A stretch of DNA of 64,000 nucleotides from a phage. The translations under genes were made by a program, and so were the position numbers. The notes beneath the pieces are model-generated. The model was not told the origin of the DNA. It worked only from the letters and a program-made list of their open reading frames with translations, and searched no databases. Each line of letters begins with the position of its first letter. Position 1 is the stretch's first letter. The stretch is from the sequence record PX667085.1; one strand, 5' to 3'. Shown one piece after another: positions 42,773-52,930 of this stretch.

Positions 42773-42865
42773 TTGAAACCTCTTAAAAACAGATATCCCA
42801 TAAATCTTAGTCTACAGGATATTTGTTGTTTTGTCAATAGAAAAATTAAAAAATATTAAATATTT

Positions 42866-44431
42866 TTAATTCGACAGGTTTTGTGCTGAAGGATCTAGAG
42901 CAGAAACAGTATCAGACGTTCCAGTTCCCGCTGTAGCTAAACCATCTCCTGATCGTGAAGTTTTGTCAGGCATATAGTTATCCATGAATTCAAAGAATTT
43001 CTCTTTATTGGCAACAATATCATCAGGGATGCGATATTCAAAACCAATTTTTTCAAGAAACTCGTTAATAACTTCTGGGGTTAAAGGTATCGCACCAGAG
43101 GCTACCAACTGCTGAATAGCTTTAGCATTTACTTCAATATCAGGATCACCCATTTCACCACTGACAAACTTAGGCATATCTTCATCAGAAAGGAAGATAT
43201 TGTTTAGTCGTAGTGTTTGAGGGATCAGTTGAGAGTTTATAGCTTCTACAACAATATCTACATCTCGCTCAATAAAATGAGACAATAGTGTTTGTTTGTT
43301 GTCAGAAAGCGCAAAACTTCCTGCATCACCATCACCCATAATCAACACACCCGCACCAAAGCGGTTATAAATATCCAGTTTACGTTGTTTGATTAGTGCT
43401 TGAGTGTCAAACTGTTTACCCGTGCCATCAACACCTTGGAATACAAGATCGTATTGACGCATCACTGTGCCTTCATAAACGTCTGAAGGCAACACCATGT
43501 AGGCTTGCTCACCAGAGTGCAGGTTAGCGATGTTGGCTTGGAGAACTCGAAGAGATTGTGCTTCATCCCCCGCAGGATCTAAAGATGCCCTGTTTAGAAT
43601 GTCACTTGGAACCTTAAGAACTGGCATACCGCCTAAATCTTTAGATACCCCAATAACCTCAAATTCCTGAATAAGAGATTTTTCACGCCAGCTACGATAT
43701 ACAGCTAACAGCGGACTAACTCCTAATGGGTTATTCTCTGTAATGTTGCTACCAACAAATAAAACTTTACTGAAAGGAATTTCTTTAATACCCGTTTCTA
43801 AAGTTGTATTACCTGGAGCTAACATCGTATTGGTGATATTCTGGTTAACAGATAGAATAGAACGTCCGTCTGCCGAATATGTAAAAGGTTGAGCCATGTG
43901 AAGAGTGTCTTGTGGTCTAAAAGCCAATTTGGTCAACCGCCAATACCCAAAGTAAGGACTTTTAGGATCTTCATCCAACTCATAAACTTTCTCTGCGAAT
44001 GCAAAACCATATTGCTTATATGTCAAAAGTGATCTAACATATTGACGTAGAGGGGCTTGCATATTGCGTAACATGTAATCAATAAACTTAGCAGCTTTTC
44101 TTGACTTTGCCGAGTTTACATTGTATTTTATCTTGAAATCAAAGAATGCTCTATCTACAAAGATATATGTAGCGTCAAGAGCAGTAGCTACATCAGGGTC
44201 TTCACCCATCTCTTTAAAAGTGCGAATACATTCTGGGAAACGAGTCTCATAGGGTTGCATGAAATTCGTAAATGCTTTGATTGAGTTTAATCCGATCGTT
44301 CCTATTTCAGGTGACAGGAGTAACGTTTTCTCTTTCTCTGCTTCTTTTGTTGGAGAGAGAGCAGCTTTATTTGCAGCACCTTTGTCCCAGTATTCTGACT
44401 TTTTAGTGTACGTTCTTTTTCCTGTTGACAC
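42866..44431 (-). CDS. portal protein
   Basis: 521 aa ORF immediately downstream of terminase large subunit. Confidence 0.6.
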   Translation of the reverse strand: MSTGKRTYTKKSEYWDKGAANKAALSPTKEAEKEKTLLLSPEIGTIGLNSIKAFTNFMQPYETRFPECIRTFKEMGEDPDVATALDATYIFVDRAFFDFKIKYNVNSAKSRKAAKFIDYMLRNMQAPLRQYVRSLLTYKQYGFAFAEKVYELDEDPKSPYFGYWRLTKLAFRPQDTLHMAQPFTYSADGRSILSVNQNITNTMLAPGNTTLETGIKEIPFSKVLFVGSNITENNPLGVSPLLAVYRSWREKSLIQEFEVIGVSKDLGGMPVLKVPSDILNRASLDPAGDEAQSLRVLQANIANLHSGEQAYMVLPSDVYEGTVMRQYDLVFQGVDGTGKQFDTQALIKQRKLDIYNRFGAGVLIMGDGDAGSFALSDNKQTLLSHFIERDVDIVVEAINSQLIPQTLRLNNIFLSDEDMPKFVSGEMGDPDIEVNAKAIQQLVASGAIPLTPEVINEFLEKIGFEYRIPDDIVANKEKFFEFMDNYMPDKTSRSGDGLATAGTGTSDTVSALDPSAQNLSN

Positions 44432-48110: not shown

Positions 48111-48189
48111 TGGAGGCGGGAATTGGATTTGAACCAATGATCTCCAGCATATGAAACTGGCGAGGACGACCAGACTCCTCTATCCCGCT
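48111..48189 (-). tRNA. tRNA-Met (anticodon CAT)
   Basis: CCA encoded; T-arm ATTGG-ATTTGAA-CCAAT; anticodon loop TTCATAT; 11-nt D-loop; A1-C72 mismatch. Confidence 0.55.
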
Positions 48190-48195
48190 ATTAGG

Positions 48196-48265
48196 TATCC
48201 CGTGCTGGATTCGAACCAGCATCACAATAAGTTGTGGAACTCTTATCCTGTAAGTCTAACGGGAA
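48196..48265 (-). tRNA. tRNA-like element, possibly degenerate
   Basis: clean T-arm GCTGG-ATTCGAA-CCAGC and 6-bp acceptor, but only 70 nt, no CCA, anticodon arm would need a 10-nt loop. Confidence 0.3.
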
Positions 48266-48267
48266 AT

Positions 48268-48341
48268 TGGTTGTTTCGACAAGAATCGAACTTGTGTCTC
48301 ACGATTATCAGTCGTGGGTTCTACCATTGAACTACGAAACA
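48268..48341 (-). tRNA. tRNA-Ile (anticodon GAT)
   Basis: CCA encoded; 7-bp acceptor; T-arm; anticodon stem CACGA/TCGTG with loop CTGATAA. Confidence 0.7.
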
Positions 48342-48347
48342 TTAAAT

Positions 48348-48424
48348 TGGTCGGAATTGCAGGATTCGAACCTGCGACCCTACGCTCCCAAAGCGTATGC
48401 TCTACCAAACTGAGCTAAATTCCG
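48348..48424 (-). tRNA. tRNA-Pro (anticodon TGG)
   Basis: CCA encoded; 7-bp acceptor; T-arm GCAGG-ATTCGAA-CCTGC; anticodon loop TTTGGGA. Confidence 0.7.
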
Positions 48425-48429
48425 TTATA

Positions 48430-48505
48430 TGGCTGGTCTGTCTGGATTTGAACCAAACCTACGACAGTCAAAGTGTCGTGTGCTACCTGACTACACTACA
48501 AACCA
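48430..48505 (-). tRNA. tRNA-Gln (anticodon TTG)
   Basis: CCA encoded; acceptor with one G-U pair; anticodon stem CGACA/TGTCG with loop CTTTGAC. Confidence 0.6.
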
Positions 48506-48603
48506 ATAAATCATTTAATGAAGGGCAACCAGAAGAGGTGTGAGAGAAGGAGAAAACCATGAGTAAAAGAGAAAGTTTTCTGGCAACCCTTTATTAAATA
48601 ATT

Positions 48604-48677
48604 TGGAGCGTTCTACGAGGATCGAACTCGTGCCGCCGACTTGGAAGGACGGAATGCTACCGCTACACCAAGAACGC
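48604..48677 (-). tRNA. tRNA-Gly (anticodon TCC)
   Basis: CCA encoded; perfect acceptor and T-arm ACGAG-GATCGAA-CTCGT; anticodon loop CTTCCAA; one U-U mismatch in anticodon stem. Confidence 0.55.
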
Positions 48678-48688
48678 CCTACCTCTTT

Positions 48689-48718
48689 ACTATACTACAT
48701 TTTACTATTGGTTGTCAA
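48689..48718 (-). promoter_or_regulatory. tRNA-unit promoter 1 (AACTATTGACAA motif, -10 TATAGT)
   Basis: minus-strand TTGACA at plus 48713-48718, TATAGT 18 nt downstream; directly precedes tRNA-Gly. Confidence 0.45.
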
Positions 48719-48993
48719 TAGTTTTATTGAGTGGGACAGTGACGAGTATCCCATTGGGTGACTAGCCCTACGTTCGGTAAGCTAACTTAAAATAATACAA
48801 AACCAAAGTCAAATATTATTCTTCGTTGCTGTCGATGGGAGAGCCGCTTCTTCTTTTGCCCCATCCAACCCTACTCCGGTCAAGTTTCAGGTAACTCTTT
48901 TTGTGTGATCAACACAATACTAAGAACACTGTCTTTCGAACAGACCTTGTGCACAGGATACGACGATCAATCACAGTGCTCTTAATGTTGTGT

Positions 48994-49068
48994 TGGTGCT
49001 CCCACTCTGAATCGAACAGAGATCCACGGATTACAAAACCGTTGTAATAGCCATTATACTATAGGAGC
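48994..49068 (-). tRNA. tRNA-Thr (anticodon TGT)
   Basis: CCA encoded; T-arm CTCTG-AATCGAA-CAGAG; anticodon loop TTTGTAA. Confidence 0.6.
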
Positions 49069-49074
49069 AAAGCT

Positions 49075-49151
49075 GGGACTCGGCAGGATTCGATACCTGC
49101 AATTCCAGAAGCCTCTTGGCGACTGGGGGTTTACCTTAACTCTACAAGTCC
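49075..49151 (-). tRNA. tRNA-like element with atypical 8-nt T-loop, anticodon unresolved
   Basis: acceptor pairs (6 bp plus one G-U) and T-stem GCAGG/CCTGC present, but T-loop is TATCGAAT and no 5-7-5 anticodon arm found; no CCA. Confidence 0.3.
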
Positions 49152-49158
49152 ATAATTC

Positions 49159-49244
49159 TGGCGATGAGTATAGGATTTGAACCTATATCGTTCTTTCGAA
49201 CACGGATTAACAGTCCGCCGCTTAAACCATTCAGCCAACTCATC
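49159..49244 (-). tRNA. tRNA-Asn (anticodon GTT) with extended 15-nt variable arm
   Basis: CCA and G73; perfect acceptor; anticodon arm GCGGA-CTGTTAA-TCCGT; extra hairpin GTTC-GAAA-GAAC before T-arm; 86 nt. Confidence 0.5.
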
Positions 49245-49250
49245 TTAATT

Positions 49251-49338
49251 TGGTGGTGAGTGATGGAGTCGAACCACCCGAATCGCAATGATAACAGATT
49301 TACAGTCTGCCCCGCTACCCCTACGGAATTAACTCACC
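49251..49338 (-). tRNA. tRNA-Tyr (anticodon GTA), class II
   Basis: CCA, A73, perfect acceptor; anticodon arm CAGACTGTAAATCTG; long variable arm; 88 nt. Confidence 0.7.
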
Positions 49339-49468
49339 TAAATACTAATATTTAAATTCTTTTTAAAATAGCCAGTGTTCACACCACTAACTATGAGTTA
49401 TCGGTAAGATGGTGGAGGCCATCTGCCGAAAGTTTACTCTATTAAAGTAAGCTATATTAAAAAGAACT

Positions 49469-49554
49469 TGGCGGTAGATGTAGGACTCGAACCTACACGC
49501 CGTTTCCGACTACAGTTTAGCAAACTGTCGTGGCTACCATTTCACCAATCTACC
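49469..49554 (-). tRNA. tRNA-Ser (anticodon GCT), class II
   Basis: CCA, G73, perfect acceptor; anticodon stem ACAGT/ACTGT with loop TTGCTAA; long variable arm. Confidence 0.7.
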
Positions 49555-49558
49555 AATC

Positions 49559-49649
49559 TGGCGGAAGGAGGGAGAGTCGAACTCCCAAGGCTCTTTCAAG
49601 CTCGGCGGTTTTCAAGACCGTTTTCGTCGCCACGTCGATTTGCCCTTCC
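49559..49649 (-). tRNA. tRNA-Ser (anticodon TGA), class II
   Basis: CCA, G73; anticodon region CGGTCTTGAAAACCG; long variable arm; exact 5' boundary uncertain. Confidence 0.55.
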
Positions 49650-49657
49650 ATACTTAT

Positions 49658-49687
49658 AATCTAACATAAAATAATGTTAGTTGTCAA
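49658..49687 (-). promoter_or_regulatory. tRNA-unit promoter 2 (AACTATTGACAA motif)
   Basis: minus-strand TTGACA at plus 49682-49687, -10 candidate TAGATT; directly precedes tRNA-Ser(TGA). Confidence 0.4.
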
Positions 49688-49883
49688 TAGTTTTTTAAAA
49701 CATTTTACCATGAATGGTGACTCCACCAACCCCCGTTCTCAACGAACGGTGCTCTTCGAGCATTTATGTCTTCTAATATAACCGTGGCCTTTGTTTATAA
49801 TGTCTGACATACTTGCCTCATTCTCTGCCACCATGATCAGTAGTGGGTTCAAATCACTTGAGCTAATTCATGTTAAAATGTTC

Positions 49884-49958
49884 TGGTGTCTTTACAAGGA
49901 ATCGAACCTTGACTAAGAGTTTAGAAGACTCCTGTGCTATCCATTACACCATAAAGAC
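49884..49958 (-). tRNA. tRNA-Arg (anticodon TCT)
   Basis: CCA, perfect acceptor, T-arm CAAGG-AATCGAA-CCTTG; anticodon loop CTTCTAA. Confidence 0.7.
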
Positions 49959-49960
49959 GT

Positions 49961-50035
49961 TGGTGGCCCTGGCTGGTTTCGATCCAGCTACCTATCGGTT
50001 ATGAGCCGACAGCTCTCCCATTGAGCTACAGGGCC
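49961..50035 (-). tRNA. tRNA with anticodon CAT (Met or lysidine-type Ile)
   Basis: CCA, perfect acceptor; anticodon loop CTCATAA; T-loop reads ATCGAAA (A at position 54). Confidence 0.6.
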
Positions 50036-50244
50036 ATAAATGTGGTAACAGAGACGCTGACTATTGTAGAGAACCGCTACATTCTCTAAGACCAAGCCCA
50101 ACTTTCAGCGTAAAAGTTCTTGAGCCGAGATTATTCCTTTTCCTCTTTGGTAGCTAACCTCTGAAGAAGTAGTCTCTAACACTACCGCAGTGCAAGCCCA
50201 TCTTAACAAAAGTCAACGACCCTCTTACCACACTTGATGAACGT

Positions 50245-50274
50245 ATCCTAACATATGAAGGATACGTTTGTCAA
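50245..50274 (-). promoter_or_regulatory. tRNA-unit promoter 3 (AACTATTGACAA motif)
   Basis: minus-strand TTGACA at plus 50269-50274, -10 candidate TAGGAT; adjacent inverted repeat ACGTATCCT...AGGATACGT. Confidence 0.4.
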
Positions 50275-50281
50275 TAGTTAT

Positions 50282-50530
50282 TTAAGCATATTCTGCTACT
50301 TCTTCACTATCTTTCTTTTCCAGAAGAGCAACAACCAAAGCTTCTGCGTTAAAAGTATTAATTTCAAGATCCATCTCTCGCATCAGAGCCAAGAAATCAA
50401 TAACTTTAACATCTTTAGTGATTACAATAGAAGTTGTACCATTGTTTTCAGATGTGTATTTTTCTGGATGGAAAAGAAAAACTGCATTGCCGTTACCATC
50501 TTCAAACACGTGTTTTTCTAATAGAGACAT
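50282..50530 (-). CDS. hypothetical protein (start revised)
   Basis: internal ATG at 50528-50530 with SD AGGAGGAACA gives 82 aa MSLLEKHVFEDG...; track start at 50596 overlaps upstream gene. Confidence 0.4.
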   Translation of the reverse strand: MSLLEKHVFEDGNGNAVFLFHPEKYTSENNGTTSIVITKDVKVIDFLALMREMDLEINTFNAEALVVALLEKKDSEEVAEYA

Positions 50531-50538
50531 TGTTCCTC

Positions 50539-50790
50539 CTAATCTGTTAGTTGTTCGTCCTCTACCAAGTTTGACACGAGAACGTCTGTTATACATTGAT
50601 GCTGATAAACCCTTTCGGGACTATCATCAAAAGCCAAACCTGTGCAAATAGAACAGAGGTCTGATTCCTTGATGACTCCATTTTTATCACGTCTGGAGTG
50701 GTTTGTCAAATGCCTATTACAAGCACGGCACCTAAAATAAAAGCTATTTTGCATATATCCTTCGAACCCCAAATGGGGAGTGATCGGCAT
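50539..50790 (-). CDS. small zinc-finger protein
   Basis: 83 aa; CRAC...CSIC cysteine pairs. Confidence 0.4.
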   Translation of the reverse strand: MPITPHLGFEGYMQNSFYFRCRACNRHLTNHSRRDKNGVIKESDLCSICTGLAFDDSPERVYQHQCITDVLVSNLVEDEQLTD

Positions 50791-50827
50791 CTCCTCACTT
50801 CTAGTTTAGCACGAAGGATATCTTAAG

Positions 50828-51013
50828 TCAACTAGGAATAATTTTATCCTTTTTGGTTTCATAACCAGTCCAATCTAAATCCTCCCAGCCTTCATCATCG
50901 TCTAACACATTGTCATCATCATAAGATGCAATGTTATAAATAGAACGTGGATTACAAGACATACAATCTTTAATAGGCACATGATGCCATTTGCACGGAT
51001 TCTCGCTAATCAT
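50828..51013 (-). CDS. small Cys-containing acidic protein
   Basis: 61 aa; CKWHHVPIKDCMSC; acidic tail; first gene leftward of divergence region. Confidence 0.35.
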   Translation of the reverse strand: MISENPCKWHHVPIKDCMSCNPRSIYNIASYDDDNVLDDDEGWEDLDWTGYETKKDKIIPS

Positions 51014-51039
51014 TGCACACCTCCATTCTTGTTAAGATG

Positions 51040-51243
51040 TTCCGTACTGTACTTCATACTGATCTATAGATCAAGTATTATTTATAATAATTTATTATTT
51101 TATTTTTAATTGATAGAAGTTGATCTGTACGTACCAGTTCTGATACACTGTACCTGTTTGTTAGATCTAATAATTATTTATTATTAATATTTAATAATTA
51201 TTAATCTAGTACGGAGTACAGTACTTGAGTACAGAGTACTACA
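51040..51243. promoter_or_regulatory. palindrome- and GTAC-rich AT-rich divergence region (candidate operator array or origin)
   Basis: perfect palindromes TGATCTATAGATCA (51060-51073), GTACGTAC (51127-51134), TTAGATCTAA (51161-51170); five AGTAC in 51208-51243; A/T runs between. Confidence 0.4.
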
Positions 51244-51494
51244 TCAACAACCTAAAACCTTAACTCGCTGCGCTCGTTAATAGATTTCTAGGGTAGCATA
51301 CTTCGAACACAAAAGTCAAGAGTTTTATTAAAAATTATTTTCTGTGTGCAAAAACCTTGCTTAAACAGGTAGCAATAGTATAGCCTATAACATAAGCTTC
51401 ATAAGAGGCTCGTAGAGCAAGTTCACTTACTAGGTAAGGTGATTTATCATCTTATATATAAAAAGTGCGTCAGAGACGCGTTTAGGAGGTTAGA

Positions 51495-51818
51495 ATGAGA
51501 TTTACAAGACAAGAGGTAGTTGTGCTGGACGAAGCAATGACAATGATCGTCTTTTACTATGAGGATATCTTCTGTGCAGCATATCATTTAAATGACATTC
51601 AGATTGAATGGCAGCAGATAGCATTCCTGTTGGACAAGAGTAATCATTTGGATGGCTTTGAGTATTTGGAGTGGGATGGTGCAAAGGAAGTTAAAATTGT
51701 AGGGTTAAATCACGATCAGATTGTTGACATGCAATGTAAGTTGTGTCATTATCAGTTCTCAAACAAAGTCAAACTCGAAAGGCAATTGGAGGTGGTTAAA
51801 GATGATAGCACTAATTAG
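51495..51818 (+). CDS. hypothetical early protein
   Basis: 107 aa; SD TAGGAGG; first gene of plus-strand block. Confidence 0.45.
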   Translation: MRFTRQEVVVLDEAMTMIVFYYEDIFCAAYHLNDIQIEWQQIAFLLDKSNHLDGFEYLEWDGAKEVKIVGLNHDQIVDMQCKLCHYQFSNKVKLERQLEVVKDDSTN

Positions 51819-51914
51819 TGAGAATCCAGTCCTGACAACAATTGTTCTGATTTTTGCCATGTGTGTGGTTCACGATATTCTGGTAAGTTATTTTGACAAC
51901 AAAGGAGGTAAGAA

Positions 51915-52109
51915 ATGAAAGACGTTATTCAAATGGTATTCCGTGTAACTCTAGATGGTATACACGTTGTTAAAGGCACACAGAACTACACAGAAGCGAA
52001 AGAATACTTCTTAGAGTGGATTGATACACTGAAGACACAAGATGTGTCCTACAGCCGTGTTACGCTTACTGGCGACCATACCCCAATCATGGAGTACGTA
52101 AAGAAATGA
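51915..52109 (+). CDS. hypothetical protein
   Basis: 64 aa ORF, SD AAGGAGG. Confidence 0.4.
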   Translation: MKDVIQMVFRVTLDGIHVVKGTQNYTEAKEYFLEWIDTLKTQDVSYSRVTLTGDHTPIMEYVKK

Positions 52110-52345
52110 GCAACTATCCAATTACAGGCGTAACCTATTCTTGTGTAGCAAAAGGTGGTTTATATACAGTAGTGGAATTTCCAAAACCTGCCGGAATATC
52201 TAAAGTGTTTGATCCTGTGGTTATCTATGAAGATCTTAGAACAGGTCAACGTTACTGGAGATTTGTGAATGACTTTTTAGATCGTATGGAGGTAGTAAGT
52301 GGCGAAAACACCGAAGAAGTTATCAAAGCCAAAGAACGTTACTAA
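52106..52345 (+). CDS. hypothetical protein
   Basis: 79 aa ORF, start overlaps previous stop (ATGA). Confidence 0.4.
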   Translation: MSNYPITGVTYSCVAKGGLYTVVEFPKPAGISKVFDPVVIYEDLRTGQRYWRFVNDFLDRMEVVSGENTEEVIKAKERY

Positions 52346-52652
52346 GAAACCGAAAAACGAGGTTCTCAAAGTAGCTAAATCAGTTCCTAAGAAAGATAAA
52401 TTTGATACGGAGGCATTCGTCTTTGACACACCAATCGAGAAGATTGAAGAAGCGTTGCAACGTCTTGAGGAGCAGGAGGCAGATCCGATGGCTGAACCAC
52501 TCACGGCAGACCAAATTTATTGGTGGGGAATATGGACTTTGCAACTGCCAGAAGCAAAAAGAAGAGGAATGACTTCAGTTCCTACTTGTGCAAAAGAAGC
52601 GGCTGTGTTAGGTTTGTATGAGAAATCTAAAAAGAGGAGCAAAAAGAAATGA
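52299..52652 (+). CDS. lysine-rich basic protein (possible nucleic-acid binding)
   Basis: GTG start with SD GGAGG inside the 3' end of upstream gene; Lys-rich N- and C-termini. Confidence 0.4.
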   Translation: MAKTPKKLSKPKNVTKKPKNEVLKVAKSVPKKDKFDTEAFVFDTPIEKIEEALQRLEEQEADPMAEPLTADQIYWWGIWTLQLPEAKRRGMTSVPTCAKEAAVLGLYEKSKKRSKKK

Positions 52653-52930
52653 TCAAGACTTTTCTGAAGTGTGTAAAAGCAACAGATAATGAGTGGTACT
52701 CTGGATTATTCACTGCTGGCAAGAAATACGAGATCCTCAACGGGACAGGCAAGAAGTTTTCTCTCGTTGTAAACGATGAAGGCACGAAGCAAATGGTTTT
52801 TGCTGAAAGTTCTGTTTATGGTATTTTTGAAGTAGTGCAAGAAGGCTCTCCAATGATTCTGGAGTATCATGGCACTAATAAACCATATACTGCTATAGAT
52901 GTTATCAACAACAAGAGGAATGCAAAATGA
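52649..52930 (+). CDS. hypothetical protein
   Basis: 93 aa, coupled. Confidence 0.4.
   Translation: MIKTFLKCVKATDNEWYSGLFTAGKKYEILNGTGKKFSLVVNDEGTKQMVFAESSVYGIFEVVQEGSPMILEYHGTNKPYTAIDVINNKRNAK

Follow-up and report, generated by a model that had tools for sequence, protein, structure and literature searches.

A predicted divergent promoter hub with a lineage-specific GTAC-rich insert in phAPEC8-like Phapecoctavirus genomes

Results

The window analyzed here is a stretch of 64,000 nucleotides from sequence record PX667085.1. It belongs to Phapecoctavirus, has 71 related records and matches Escherichia phage Mt1B1_P17 at 99.7%. Within the window, a gene-free gap of 481 bp (51014-51494) separates two opposed open reading frames, one of 61 aa on the minus strand and one of 107 aa on the plus strand (Table 1). 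ESCO13 is among the records that annotate each of them as a CDS. An earlier note on this DNA claimed that a non-coding hub lies where the direction of transcription switches, and this is borne out. Downstream of the 61-aa frame, the same strand encodes two further small frames and then 10 tRNA genes (48111-50035). The rightward early genes lead on to genes for a ligase, an exonuclease and a DNA polymerase. Outside the genus, the 107-aa protein shows 33-58% identity within Stephanstirmvirinae, and 93.5% in the phiWec188 copy. No initiator-like gene was found beside the hub, and the PHROGs of the flanking genes have no assigned function. Genome-wide statistics were computed on a composite genome of ~151.5 kb, and the window's own lineage (the phAPEC8 lineage) was compared with phiWec (phiWec188), phi92, FKP3 and Tr1, five lineages in all.

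Table 1. Coordinates of the hub features and flanking genes in the window
Feature	Position	Strand	Description
First leftward gene	50828..51013	-	61 aa, PHROG 26411
P_L, predicted sigma-70-type promoter	51046..51074	-	-35 TTGATC (51074..51069), 17-nt spacer, -10 TACAGT (51051..51046)
14-bp perfect palindrome TGATCTATAGATCA	51060..51073	.	two GATC sites; covers the P_L -35 and the first half of the spacer
AT block 1	51076..51111	.	36-nt A/T-only run between the two -35 elements; second longest in the genome
P_R1, predicted promoter	51120..51149	+	-35 TTGATC (51120-51125), 18-nt spacer, -10 TACACT (51144-51149)
10-bp palindrome TTAGATCTAA	51161..51170	.	part of the box CTGTTTGTTAGATCTAA, just 3' of the expected P_R1 start
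AT block 2	51168..51205	.	38-nt A/T-only run, longest in the genome
AGTAC tract	51208..51239	+	five AGTAC copies, that is five GTAC sites; lineage-specific insert
Conserved hairpin	51260..51280	-	TTAAC-GA-GC-GCA-GC-GA-GTTAA; core CGAGCGCAGCGAG, a GCGNAGC-type DNA mini-hairpin flanked by tandem G/A
P_X, conserved predicted promoter	51290..51319	-	-35 TTGACT (51319..51314), 18-nt spacer ending TGC, -10 TACCCT (51295..51290)
P_R2, promoter-like site	51422..51450	+	TTCACT-17-TATCAT; proximal to the first rightward gene
First rightward gene	51495..51818	+	107 aa, PHROG 14390, conserved across Stephanstirmvirinae

Three promoter-like sites in the gap score above the 99.95th percentile of a sigma-70 position weight matrix (PWM) scanned genome-wide on both strands. 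Two of them are arranged back to back, P_L facing left (score 10.8) and P_R1 facing right (score 11.1, with a spacer that ends in TGA, an extended -10), and the third is P_X (score 11.4). Counterparts of each are found in phiWec, phi92, FKP3 and Tr1, with scores of 12.1-13.3 for P_L at the same place, 9.3-10.8 for P_R1 and 11.4-13.9 for P_X. The P_L and P_R1 -35 elements are 45 bp apart (43-57 bp in the relatives), and the relatives also carry an A/T-only run of 23-35 nt at the place of AT block 1. The order P_L (minus strand), A/T-only run, P_R1 (plus strand), hairpin and P_X (minus strand, reading toward the hairpin) recurs in phiWec188, phi92, FKP3 and Tr1. The earlier note had argued that this was not a plain pair of promoters; what is conserved across the five lineages is, on the contrary, a core of predicted back-to-back promoters flanking an A/T-only run. 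Downstream of P_R2 and before the ribosome-binding site lie a conserved GGTAAGGTGATT box and then a hairpin, GCGTCAGAGACGC.

The -10 hexamers of the hub promoters are weak (TACAGT, TACACT and TACCCT), and these promoters score 11-11.4 versus 12-13 for the early promoters of the phage. The excess of sites is also modest, three sites scoring at least 10 per 1000 positions against ~0.6 expected at the genome rate. The phage clearly uses the host polymerase, since its early region contains ~25 near-consensus TTGACA-N17-TAAACT cassettes. A literature search at the level of titles and abstracts returned no transcript-start mapping for phages of the Stephanstirmvirinae.

The palindromes and 5 of the 10 GTAC sites of the hub sit on the -35, spacer, -10 or start region of P_L or P_R1. 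GTAC sites at 51044 and 51049 overlap the P_L -10 and start region, the palindrome GTACGTAC (51127-51134) lies inside the P_R1 spacer, and a further GTAC (51150) falls in the P_R1 start region. GATC or AGATCT is present in the P_L spacer of phiWec, phi92 and Tr1 as well. Boxes related to CTGTTTGTTAGATCTAA occur as CTGTTAGATC(T) in phi92 and Tr1 and as AGATCTGTTA in phiWec and Tr1.

All of the motifs listed in the earlier note, including its three perfect palindromes (TGATCTATAGATCA, GTACGTAC and TTAGATCTAA), are present where it placed them, and the pattern is stronger than was first claimed: GTAC sites, palindromes and A/T runs all exceed chance expectation. The five AGTAC copies (plus strand, starting at 51208, 51215, 51220, 51228 and 51235) span 32 bp, where the earlier note gave 36 bp. 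GTAC is rare in this phage. The window contains 60 sites versus 202 expected from trinucleotide frequencies, a ratio of 0.30 that is the lowest of all sixteen 4-bp palindromes in the window, and the composite genome contains 154 versus 467 expected. AGTAC is similarly scarce in the window (31 versus 116 expected from shuffles). Ten of the 60 GTAC sites in the window fall between 51044 and 51239, where 0.19 would be expected (Poisson P of at least ten in 196 bp = 1.2e-14, or ~2e-9 once multiplied by the genome length), and the hub is the sole 200-bp stretch of the composite genome with more than three. GATC, which is not depleted genome-wide, is modestly enriched (4 sites within 107 bp, P=0.0017). 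Perfect palindromes are likewise in excess over dinucleotide-preserving shuffles of the same segment: 232 bp of the hub hold four of at least 10 bp (P=0.006) and two of at least 14 bp (P=0.002), a length reached by just 11 palindromes in the whole genome. The unwinding element that the earlier note had suspected here has its best candidate in the whole genome at the hub, as the two longest A/T-only runs of the composite genome are AT blocks 2 and 1, and its least stable 200-bp duplex starts at 51045 (z=4.6).

Part of this segment is specific to the phAPEC8 lineage. The AGTAC tract is gapped in the alignment of phiWec, phi92, FKP3 and Tr1, and AT block 2 has no counterpart there either, the other lineages having one A/T-only run of at least 15 nt between P_L and the hairpin. 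AT block 2, together with a GATCTA prefix, is a diverged direct copy of 51061-51099. The AGTAC tract resembles the P_L -10 region in inverted orientation (G[A/G]AGTACAGTAC) with a 19-nt expansion, and the 10-mer AGTACAGTAC forms an inverted pair (51044-51053 and 51215-51224) ~160 bp apart. This P_L-like copy cannot work as a promoter because its -35-like TTAATC and its TACAGT are only 10 nt apart, and a rightward promoter inside the AGTAC tract was rejected on this spacing. Within the genus, dw-ec lacks two AGTAC units, and phAPEC8 itself has one GTAC changed to GTGC.

An iteron-bearing origin, also suggested previously, does not fit the AGTAC tract. Its units are 5-mers at intervals of 7, 5, 8 and 7 bp rather than units of 17-22 bp in helical phase, the tract is absent from phiWec, phi92, FKP3 and Tr1, and its copy number varies within the genus; iterons were rejected on these grounds. 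Tandem Repeats Finder reported the AT run and no array for the AGTAC tract, and a repeat search at the hub returned only a 12-nt family of two copies. The search for DnaA boxes and IHF sites in 51000-51500 gave one weak DnaA box (TTTTGCACA, 51353..51345) and no IHF consensus. Look-alikes of LexA, TrpR-operator and IHF sites, sought by eye or by pattern, did not fit.

P_X is oriented leftward, and transcripts from it would run across the hairpin, then the AGTAC tract and the two AT blocks; it points into AT-rich DNA in all five lineages. AT fractions of up to 0.95 follow it, and likewise in L045, L031 and L007. Each genome has three P_X copies, at syntenic sites. One of them is conserved antisense inside a leftward operon, with no gene to express, and one P_X/hairpin copy lies ~110 nt upstream of a co-oriented gene; the two copies other than that of the hub, near 22.98 kb and 135.1 kb in Mt1B1_P17, are without extreme AT runs.

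The hairpin always follows a promoter, at a distance of 8-35 nt. It is invariant across 12 Phapecoctavirus genomes and conserved in phiWec, phi92, FKP3 and Tr1, with loop variants limited to GCA, GAA and GATA. The cores are GCGCAGC (window, phiWec and phi92), GCGAAGC (FKP3 and Tr1) and GCGATAGC (the two other copies in the genome). They follow the GCGNAGC/GCGNNAGC rule, in which two G-C pairs close a G(N1-2)A loop and variation occurs only at N. The flanks can pair in the Stephanstirmvirinae copies (TTAAC/GTTAA, CC/GG, UGCC/GGUA and UAC/GUA), and among 51 diverse instances the first flank position pairs in 57%, with 63 double changes versus 43 +/- 6 in shuffles. Nearest-neighbor DNA folding with standard parameters gave z ~0, a result that is uninformative rather than negative because standard folding models miss the GCGNAGC mini-hairpin motif (PMC13037366). 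Mini-hairpins of the GCGNAGC/GCGNNAGC type are frequent at phage replication-initiation sites (G4, St-1, alpha3 and RSF1010 ssiA) and are poorly bound by SSB (PMC13037366).

A literal search of the literature for the hairpin motif returned vector sequences only, which led to pMB1. Over 14 nt, the phi92 copy, CCGAGCGCAGCGAG, matches a segment of pMB1/pBR322 exactly, as does the window copy over 13 nt. This segment is ~160 nt from GTTGCTGGCGTTTTTCC, which we take to be the RNA/DNA switch of the pMB1 ori, and the 14-mer CCGAGCGCAGCGAG presumably falls inside the mapped ssiA/n'-pas site. The hairpin also shares AGCGAAGCG with the phiX174 F-G intergenic region, which presumably holds the n' site. 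An Rfam scan of 50000-52000 (E<=5) gave chance-level matches only. In IMG/VR, an exact 22-mer of the conserved element was found in one contig only, and a structured pattern of TACCCT plus hairpin in 74 stretches, mostly on contigs of unshown relatedness. The cassette of promoter plus mini-hairpin is absent from Rfam, and we found no description of it in the literature.

Discussion

We consider it probable that the main region of divergent transcription control in the phAPEC8-like Phapecoctavirus has its core in this segment. Host sigma-70 RNA polymerase would transcribe leftward from P_L into the three small genes and the tRNA cluster, and rightward from P_R1 to the small early genes and, beyond them, to those for ligase, exonuclease and DNA polymerase. 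The A/T run between the two promoters most likely serves as an UP element for both and eases opening of the DNA. The GATC palindromes, over the P_L -35 and spacer and just past the P_R1 start, are candidate sites for a regulator or for modulation by Dam/SeqA. In the phAPEC8 lineage only, a partial duplication of this module would have produced the second A/T run and an inverted copy of the P_L -10 with a shortened spacer; subsequent expansion of the AGTAC unit would have given five copies within the P_X leader. A promoter pair leaves the ten tolerated GTAC copies unaccounted for, given the threefold purge elsewhere. Nor does it explain why the genome's other divergence point is just a plain promoter gap of 118 bp that shows none of the hub features.

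A transcription-primed replication origin at the hub would be compatible with these promoters, and we hold it possible, if on balance doubtful. Transcription from P_X, or melting driven by supercoiling, would open both A/T-only runs and expose the non-template (minus) strand. The GC-GNA-GC hairpin would resist SSB and provide PriA, DnaG or the phage primase-helicase with a single-strand initiation signal, and RNA or an R-loop would prime leftward leading-strand synthesis by analogy with ColE1, T7 and T4. The proposal is plausible because a conserved P_X points into AT-rich DNA, in all five lineages, through an ssi-like mini-hairpin with a match to pMB1. It is also in line with the extreme instability of the hub and the genome's two longest A/T-only runs within it, with a hairpin core that obeys the mini-hairpin rule, a motif frequent at phage replication-initiation sites (PMC13037366), with the AGCGAAGCG match to phiX174, with the antisense P_X copy that has no gene to express, and with the position of the hairpin motif on the strand that P_X transcription would displace. 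In ColE1, ssiA/n'-pas is exposed downstream of ori (PMC3167613), and the rV5-like phages are without an established origin (PMC3606486). However, a hairpin 8-35 nt after a promoter would equally suit a 5' RNA leader or a small RNA, one P_X copy lies upstream of a co-oriented gene, and the other two copies lack extreme AT runs. Standard folding gives z ~0, stem covariation among the 51 diverse instances is only moderate, and a single weak DnaA box is present. GC skew, confounded by gene orientation, is uninformative on this point because its turning points coincide with all four gene-orientation switches of the genome, as in rV5 (PMC3606486). It is very improbable that the hub is a genome terminus or a packaging site, whether pac or a direct terminal repeat. 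The nieznany record begins inside it, and phage ends often carry short repeats and AT-rich DNA, but the nieznany copy has a 103-bp collapse between two direct repeats, which is typical of an assembly break, and other records start at many differing places. The phi92-like BME3 has direct terminal repeats of 342 bp by PhageTerm (PMC12210895), and its record starts in a different non-coding region of 1.5 kb; the Mt1B1_P17 record similarly opens with 1,244 bp free of annotated CDS. We rejected a genome end or pac site at the hub on these two grounds, the position of the BME3 repeat and the apparent assembly break in nieznany.

The GTAC-rich insert admits two other explanations, which differ in whether the sites are read. 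It may be a neutral by-product, an inverted partial duplication of the module from AT block 1 to P_L followed by slippage in a permissive spacer, with the abundance of GTAC an accident of copying a -10 region that contained it. We think this somewhat unlikely. The tract is 74% identical to the inverted P_L module, keeps G[A/G]AGTACAGTAC around the 19-nt internal expansion and carries promoter elements too close together to function; isolates differ by indels of entire units and of parts of the AT runs, and every other lineage compared lacks the tract. Against this, the tract is kept with few substitutions in ~65 genomes, five more GTAC sites lie outside it, and ten copies without function would be expected to have eroded under any genome-wide selection against GTAC. 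Alternatively, the sites could form an operator or methylation switch of the phAPEC8 lineage, in which a phage or host factor reading GTAC-containing sites such as AGTACAGTAC, or their modification, would bind at the P_L -10, at the spacer and start of P_R1 and in the P_X leader, perhaps looping the AT-rich DNA, to shut or time the three promoters. GTAC would then be purged elsewhere as a recognized signal. We judge this reading unlikely. The GTAC or GATC sites may still act as operators. The switch reading is consistent with ten sites on core elements of all three promoters, with the inverted AGTACAGTAC pair, and with the strong depletion of GTAC (0.3) in the lineage that has the cluster, compared with ~0.8 in phi92, FKP3 and Tr1 and ~0.5-0.6 in phiWec (small samples). 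In the nanopore-only assembly of BI-EHEC, 15 of 23 GTAC sites read GTAT, ATAC or an indel, versus at most 23% for other 4-mers, the pattern expected of base-modified GTAC in that DNA, and the phage encodes two PHROG-level DNA methyltransferases. However, GTAC is missing from the phiWec hub, phi92 lacks it from P_L to the P_X hairpin and reads AGTAT at the matching place, natural isolates lose single GTAC sites and whole units, and the sites are irregularly spaced. No candidate binding protein emerged. Pfam gave no match for the two annotated DNA methyltransferases and no clue to GTAC specificity for these, the CapR-domain endonuclease and the 'anti-restriction nuclease', and PHROGs repeated 'DNA methyltransferase' for the two and nothing more. 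Moreover, BI-EHEC and dw-ec come from one laboratory, yet dw-ec retains its GTAC sites, which suggests that any GTAC modification may be host-derived.

A bolder proposal would join these elements, and we regard it as speculative and distinctly improbable. The hub would be an origin of the phAPEC8/phi92-like phages, perhaps the principal one. P_X, as a host-polymerase promoter dedicated to this role and with TGnTACCCT as its fixed -10, would read through CGA-GC-GNA-GC-GAG, which would signal priming or primosome loading on the displaced strand beside the most easily melted DNA of the genome; the two together would form a widespread module. In the phAPEC8 lineage the GTAC insert would supply a further level of control, read by a GTAC-specific modification or binding activity that also purges GTAC genome-wide.

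Several known systems share parts of this arrangement. Like the ColE1/pMB1 origin, with its RNA II promoter, R-loop and n'-pas/ssiA, the hub has a promoter directed toward the site, a motif on the strand that would be displaced, and the 14-nt identity of the phi92 copy CCGAGCGCAGCGAG (13 nt in the window). Unlike it, the hub places the hairpin 8-35 nt rather than hundreds of nucleotides past the start, lacks RNA I/RNA II control, and occurs with three copies of the cassette per genome in a lytic phage that has its own polymerase and primase-helicase. The primary origin of T7 and the T4 origins ori(uvsY) and ori(34) consist of a promoter followed by an AT-rich unwinding element. P_X is similarly followed by the least stable DNA of the genome, and several promoter-linked copies recall the multiple origins of T4; the hub differs in that it would depend on host sigma-70 RNA polymerase rather than on T7 RNAP or MotA, and in that the other two P_X copies are without a strong unwinding element.

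The mini-hairpins of ssi signals (G4, St-1, alpha3 and RSF1010 ssiA) and of the N4 virion-RNAP hairpin promoters (PMC13037366) obey the same exact sequence rule, vary only at N, and combine strand-specific structure with adjoining AT-rich DNA. In contrast to these, the hairpin of the hub is found in a double-stranded lytic myovirus, has invariant tandem G/A flanks (CGA...GAG) and follows a -10 that is fixed as TGnTACCCT. Origins of the iteron type (lambda ori, P1 oriR, F and R6K) likewise have short direct repeats beside an AT-rich stretch, and the clusters of methylation-type tetranucleotides at the hub are reminiscent of the GATC heptamers in P1 oriR and oriC. Unlike these, the hub has 5-nt units at 7, 5, 8 and 7 bp that are unconserved and variable in number, and no adjacent initiator gene or DnaA-box array.

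Phages of Phapecoctavirus and Justusliebigvirus are widely isolated as therapeutic agents against E. coli and Klebsiella, and the hub offers concrete positions at which to test three predicted promoters, a putative unwinding element and a putative priming hairpin. The threefold purge of GTAC set against ten copies in 196 bp constitutes a natural experiment on restriction avoidance versus functional constraint. If the cassette is indeed an initiation signal, it would link the priming signals of ssDNA phages and plasmids to large dsDNA phages, and under the origin reading it would be a widespread and unrecognized phage initiation module, of a new kind for large lytic phages.

A close described parallel for the divergent control region that we favor is in rV5, where bidirectional promoters are expected at the corresponding gene-orientation switches and changes in GC skew follow transcription (PMC3606486). 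The rV5 regions (predicted between genes 10/11, expected between 81/82; PMC3606486) resemble the hub in the switch of orientation, in -35/-10 pairs on both strands, in AT-rich DNA upstream of each -35, and in a skew that turns only since transcription turns. The hub departs from them in its extreme A/T-only spacer, its nested and conserved third promoter and its lineage-specific GTAC-rich insert, all of which were previously undescribed and, beyond a 55-bp 'repeat_region', unannotated. This annotation is found at the hub in three Danish records, as a bare feature without explanation.

Genomic setting of the hub

The gene-free region of about 480 bp described in the earlier note is confirmed as a gap of 481 bp (51014-51494, hereafter the hub) between a leftward and a rightward gene block. 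Megablast of 50500-52500 matched 71 phage records, nearly all of them Phapecoctavirus (Stephanstirmvirinae), myoviruses of ~150 kb, and the closest was Escherichia phage Mt1B1_P17 (99.7%). In the related records the gap carries no annotation beyond a 55-bp 'repeat_region', given without explanation, in three Danish genomes. Genome-wide values refer to a composite genome of ~151.5 kb made of Mt1B1_P17 1-47,681, the window and Mt1B1_P17 100,001-150,000 (the last 1.2 kb left out). Transcription diverges at one other point of this genome, a plain gap of 118 bp that holds an ordinary TTGACA promoter, and the hub is therefore special. Bidirectional promoters have been anticipated at such orientation switches in phage rV5, where skew changes track transcription (PMC3606486); as in rV5, all four skew turning points of the composite genome fall at orientation switches. 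Relative to Mt1B1_P17 (NC_052662.1), the coordinate offset at window position 50500 differs by ~1.6 kb from that at position 1, so the window has ~1.6 kb of additional sequence somewhere in this interval.

Conserved predicted promoters

With a sigma-70 position-weight matrix that had been calibrated on the composite genome, both strands included, we found three sites in the window above the 99.95th percentile, named P_L, P_R1 and P_X (see table). More diverged relatives were reached via the flanking 107-aa protein: phiWec188/179, phi92, Klebsiella phage FKP3 and Citrobacter phage Tr1. The same scan yields counterparts of all three promoters in these four lineages, in identical order and orientation, with the -35 elements of P_L and P_R1 43-57 bp apart and an A/T-only run of 23-35 nt between them. 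Given this recurrence, the conserved core is a back-to-back pair of predicted promoters sharing an A/T spacer, and a divergent promoter hub is the best-supported explanation of the region, one that we consider reasonably probable.

Features of the hub and copies of the P_X cassette
Feature	Position	Strand	Description
Leftward 61-aa ORF	50828-51013	-	Left border of gap; then two further small ORFs and ten tRNA genes
P_L	-10 at 51051..51046	-	TTGATC-17-TACAGT
P_R1	-10 at 51144-51149	+	TTGATC-18-TACACT, extended -10 TG
P_X	-10 at 51295..51290	-	TTGACT-18-TACCCT with TGC
P_X/hairpin cassette	51258-51319	-	TTGACT-N18(TGC)-TACCCT-N13-CGAGCGCAGCGAG
Cassette copy, Mt1B1_P17	L011 22960-23015	+	
Cassette copy, Mt1B1_P17	L012 35113-35170	+	
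Rightward 107-aa ORF	51495-51818	+	Right border of gap; first in long series of small genes

The palindromic motifs map onto elements of P_L and P_R1. A 14-bp palindrome spans the -35 element and spacer of P_L, whose -10 is overlapped by the left pair of GTAC sites, the P_R1 spacer contains GTACGTAC, and the GTAC at 51150 and TTAGATCTAA lie at the expected P_R1 start or just downstream. Most relatives carry GATC or AGATCT at equivalent positions, and these recurrent sites may be bound by a regulator or confer Dam/SeqA sensitivity.

There is nothing unusual in divergent promoters with AT-rich spacers, and the hub is predictable from rV5. The earlier view that this is "not a plain pair of promoters" is not supported for the conserved core. 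Three features are out of the ordinary: A/T runs of extreme length, a tenfold cluster of GTAC in a genome otherwise purged of it, and the P_X cassette, an unannotated and widespread combination of promoter and mini-hairpin. With these, the origin and the transcription programme of a phage group popular in therapy can be tested directly.

GTAC sites, palindromes and A/T runs

All motifs named from the sequence alone were found at their reported positions, and their frequency is above chance, with statistics for the GTAC cluster, palindromes and A/T runs that are stronger than could be known from that first reading. GTAC has the lowest observed/expected ratio of the sixteen 4-bp palindromes in the window (60 observed, 202 predicted by trinucleotide content; ratio 0.30) and is similarly rare in the composite genome (154 observed, 467 predicted); for AGTAC the window count is 31, vs 116 in shuffles. 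Ten of the 60 sites are located in 51044-51239 (Poisson P ~1e-14), while every other 200-bp stretch of the composite genome has at most three. Perfect palindromes are more frequent than in dinucleotide shuffles of this 232-bp segment (P=0.006 for at least 10 bp, P=0.002 for at least 14 bp), and two of the genome's 11 palindromes of at least 14 bp sit in the hub. Clustering of GATC is mild (four in 107 bp, P=0.0017) and this motif is not depleted genome-wide. The AT-rich runs are borne out as the two longest A/T-only runs of the genome (AT1, 51076-51111, 36 nt; AT2, 51168-51205, 38 nt), and the 200 bp from 51045 form its least stable duplex (z=4.6). The third longest run is a 31-nt A/T-only near-palindrome, AAAAATTAAAAAATATTAAATATTTTTAATT, at 42841-42871.

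The AGTAC tract and the second A/T run

No GTAC cluster like that of the window was found in phiWec188/179, phi92, FKP3 or Tr1; between P_L and the hairpin downstream of P_X there are no GTAC sites in phiWec and phi92, one in Tr1 and three in FKP3. The five AGTAC copies (51208-51239) align opposite a gap in all four lineages. The phi92 sequence reads AGTAT-AG-AGTAT at the matching place. AT2 is likewise without counterpart, as these lineages have a single A/T-only run of at least 15 nt in this interval. Among twelve Phapecoctavirus genomes, dw-ec is missing two AGTAC units, phAPEC8 has GTGC for GTAC in one unit, the GTAC at 51150 is gone from anhysbys, and the length of the AT runs differs. 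The term "iteron-bearing" is not sustained: the units are 5 nt long, spaced 7/5/8/7 bp, not conserved and variable in copy number, and TRF reports no array at the tract.

A repeat search showed that 51164-51202 repeats 51061-51099 in direct orientation and diverged form. In addition, the stretch from AT2 to the AGTAC tract aligns at 74% with the reverse complement of AT1 to P_L, keeping G[A/G]AGTACAGTAC and with a 19-nt internal expansion. A neutral duplication product is a doubtful reading, put forward for the AGTAC tract specifically. A promoter in the inverted P_L copy was rejected because its -35-like TTAATC and TACAGT are just 10 nt apart. A second small slippage-prone repeat, the 9-bp unit CCTTAAAAC (51250-51262), adjoins the hairpin, with one copy in the window and two to three in UP17 and anhysbys. 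The record of phage nieznany (MN850598.1, L003 1-441) begins inside the hub and is without the 103 bp between the two GATCTA+AT direct repeats; this start is probably not a genuine end but an artefact of assembly, either a break or a collapse at the repeats.

The GTAC ratio is 0.3-0.35 in the phAPEC8 lineage and, in small samples, ~0.5-0.6 in phiWec and ~0.8 in phi92, FKP3 and Tr1; the purging lineage is thus the one that concentrates GTAC at the hub. Phage BI-EHEC (OL505078.1, 42000-68000) was compared with window 38502-64000, and of the 23 GTAC sites that could be aligned, 15 appear as GTAT or ATAC or have indels (1-2-nt insertions), one of the altered sites being within a coding region (ORF at 52696). 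All other 4-mers are altered in at most 23% of cases, and nothing abnormal is seen at Dam or Dcm sites. This genome was assembled solely from nanopore reads (PMC8686590), and the pattern suggests that GTAC was modified in the DNA sequenced and systematically miscalled, or else that the changes are real and reflect strong selection. The sites are kept in dw-ec, from the same laboratory, and any modification may therefore be host-derived. The phage itself encodes two PHROG-level DNA methyltransferases, to which PHROG assigns no specificity. An operator read through GTAC, or a methylation switch, appears unlikely.

A promoter-plus-hairpin cassette

The best-conserved non-coding sequence of the region adjoins 51040-51243, the interval singled out in the earlier note, on its right. 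This P_X/hairpin element is invariant in twelve Phapecoctavirus genomes and ~75% identical across lineages (by eye in the multiple alignment) whose flanking proteins share 33-58% identity; phiWec188's own copy of the protein reaches 93.5%. Its general form is TTGACT-N17/18-TGnTACCCT-N13-CGAGCG(N1-2)AGCGAG. Each genome has three copies, syntenic in three genus-level lineages: one at the hub, one ~110 nt upstream of a co-oriented gene, and one antisense within a leftward operon with no gene to express. The hairpin core is C-GA-GC-G(N1-2)A-GC-GA-G and its loop is GCA, GAA or GATA; the pairing of the flanks changes from copy to copy, and covariation is moderate over 51 diverse instances. A structured search of IMG/VR for TACCCT plus hairpin returned 74 stretches vs ~0.02 estimated by chance, mostly from contigs without shown relation to Stephanstirmvirinae; some single contigs (L063, L067, L088) carry multiple hairpin copies. 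The cassette is absent from Rfam.

The core fits the GCGNAGC/GCGNNAGC rule for 'mini-hairpin DNA', a motif that is common where phage replication starts (G4, St-1, alpha3, RSF1010 ssiA), binds SSB poorly and lies outside standard energy models (PMC13037366), consistent with z ~0 on standard folding. A literal search of the literature for the motif matched vector sequences only. The phi92 hairpin CCGAGCGCAGCGAG is identical to pMB1/pBR322 DNA over 14 nt (13 nt for the window copy), ~160 nt from what we take to be the RNA/DNA switch and presumably inside the mapped n'-pas/ssiA site. The phiX174 F-G intergenic region, which we assume to be the location of its n' site, also contains AGCGAAGCG. The pMB1 sequence was confirmed in thousands of ColE1-type plasmids, and ColE1 replication exposes the n'-pas/ssiA primosome site downstream of ori (PMC3167613).

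In the hub, transcription from P_X would displace the strand that carries the motif, and beyond the hairpin lie the AGTAC tract and then the most meltable DNA of the genome. An origin primed by transcription, in the manner of ColE1, T7 or T4, would be compatible with the promoter hub and is a tentative addition to it. In favour of such an origin are the unwinding element, the direction in which P_X points, the mini-hairpin and the antisense cassette copy, which is an orphan; against it, the hairpin is invariably just downstream of a promoter, like a 5' leader or small RNA, and the other cassette copies are without extreme AT runs. A genome terminus at the hub is disfavoured because the 342-bp terminal repeat of the phi92-like phage BME3 lies in a different non-coding region. 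The records of phi92-like and phAPEC8-like genomes start with a large non-coding region (BME3, PP239276.1, L021 1-1480, the genome reported with the 342-bp repeat; Mt1B1_P17, L011 1-1244), which holds several copies of a Fur-box-like motif, AATGATTATCATT.

Other elements of the hub and early region

On the minus strand, TGTGCAAAA (51345-51353) fits the DnaA-box consensus TTWTNCACA and is conserved in Phapecoctavirus, nearly so in phiWec (TGTGCAAAG), and not in phi92. Two elements lie within 51432-51494. The box AGGTAAGGTGATTTATCATC is conserved from Phapecoctavirus to phi92. A hairpin, GCGTCAGAGACGC, lies immediately 5' of the RBS of the first rightward gene and, with ACTTTTTATA, scores as a minus-strand terminator (51479..51467). 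The phiWec lineage (L005, L006 2659-2871) has an extra 70-aa ORF inside its hub, to one side of which lies the P_X element and to the other the GGTAAGGTGATT box, which is conserved; the window is non-coding there. Finally, the early region of Mt1B1_P17 (L011 1665-12304, minus strand) contains ~25 intergenic cassettes, one before nearly every small early gene, each with a near-consensus TTGACA-N17-TAAACT/TAAGAT promoter followed by a 5' hairpin, GTATTACGTAGGGCGGC-loop-GCCGCC, which resemble the promoter-early-stem-loop cassettes of T4-type phages.
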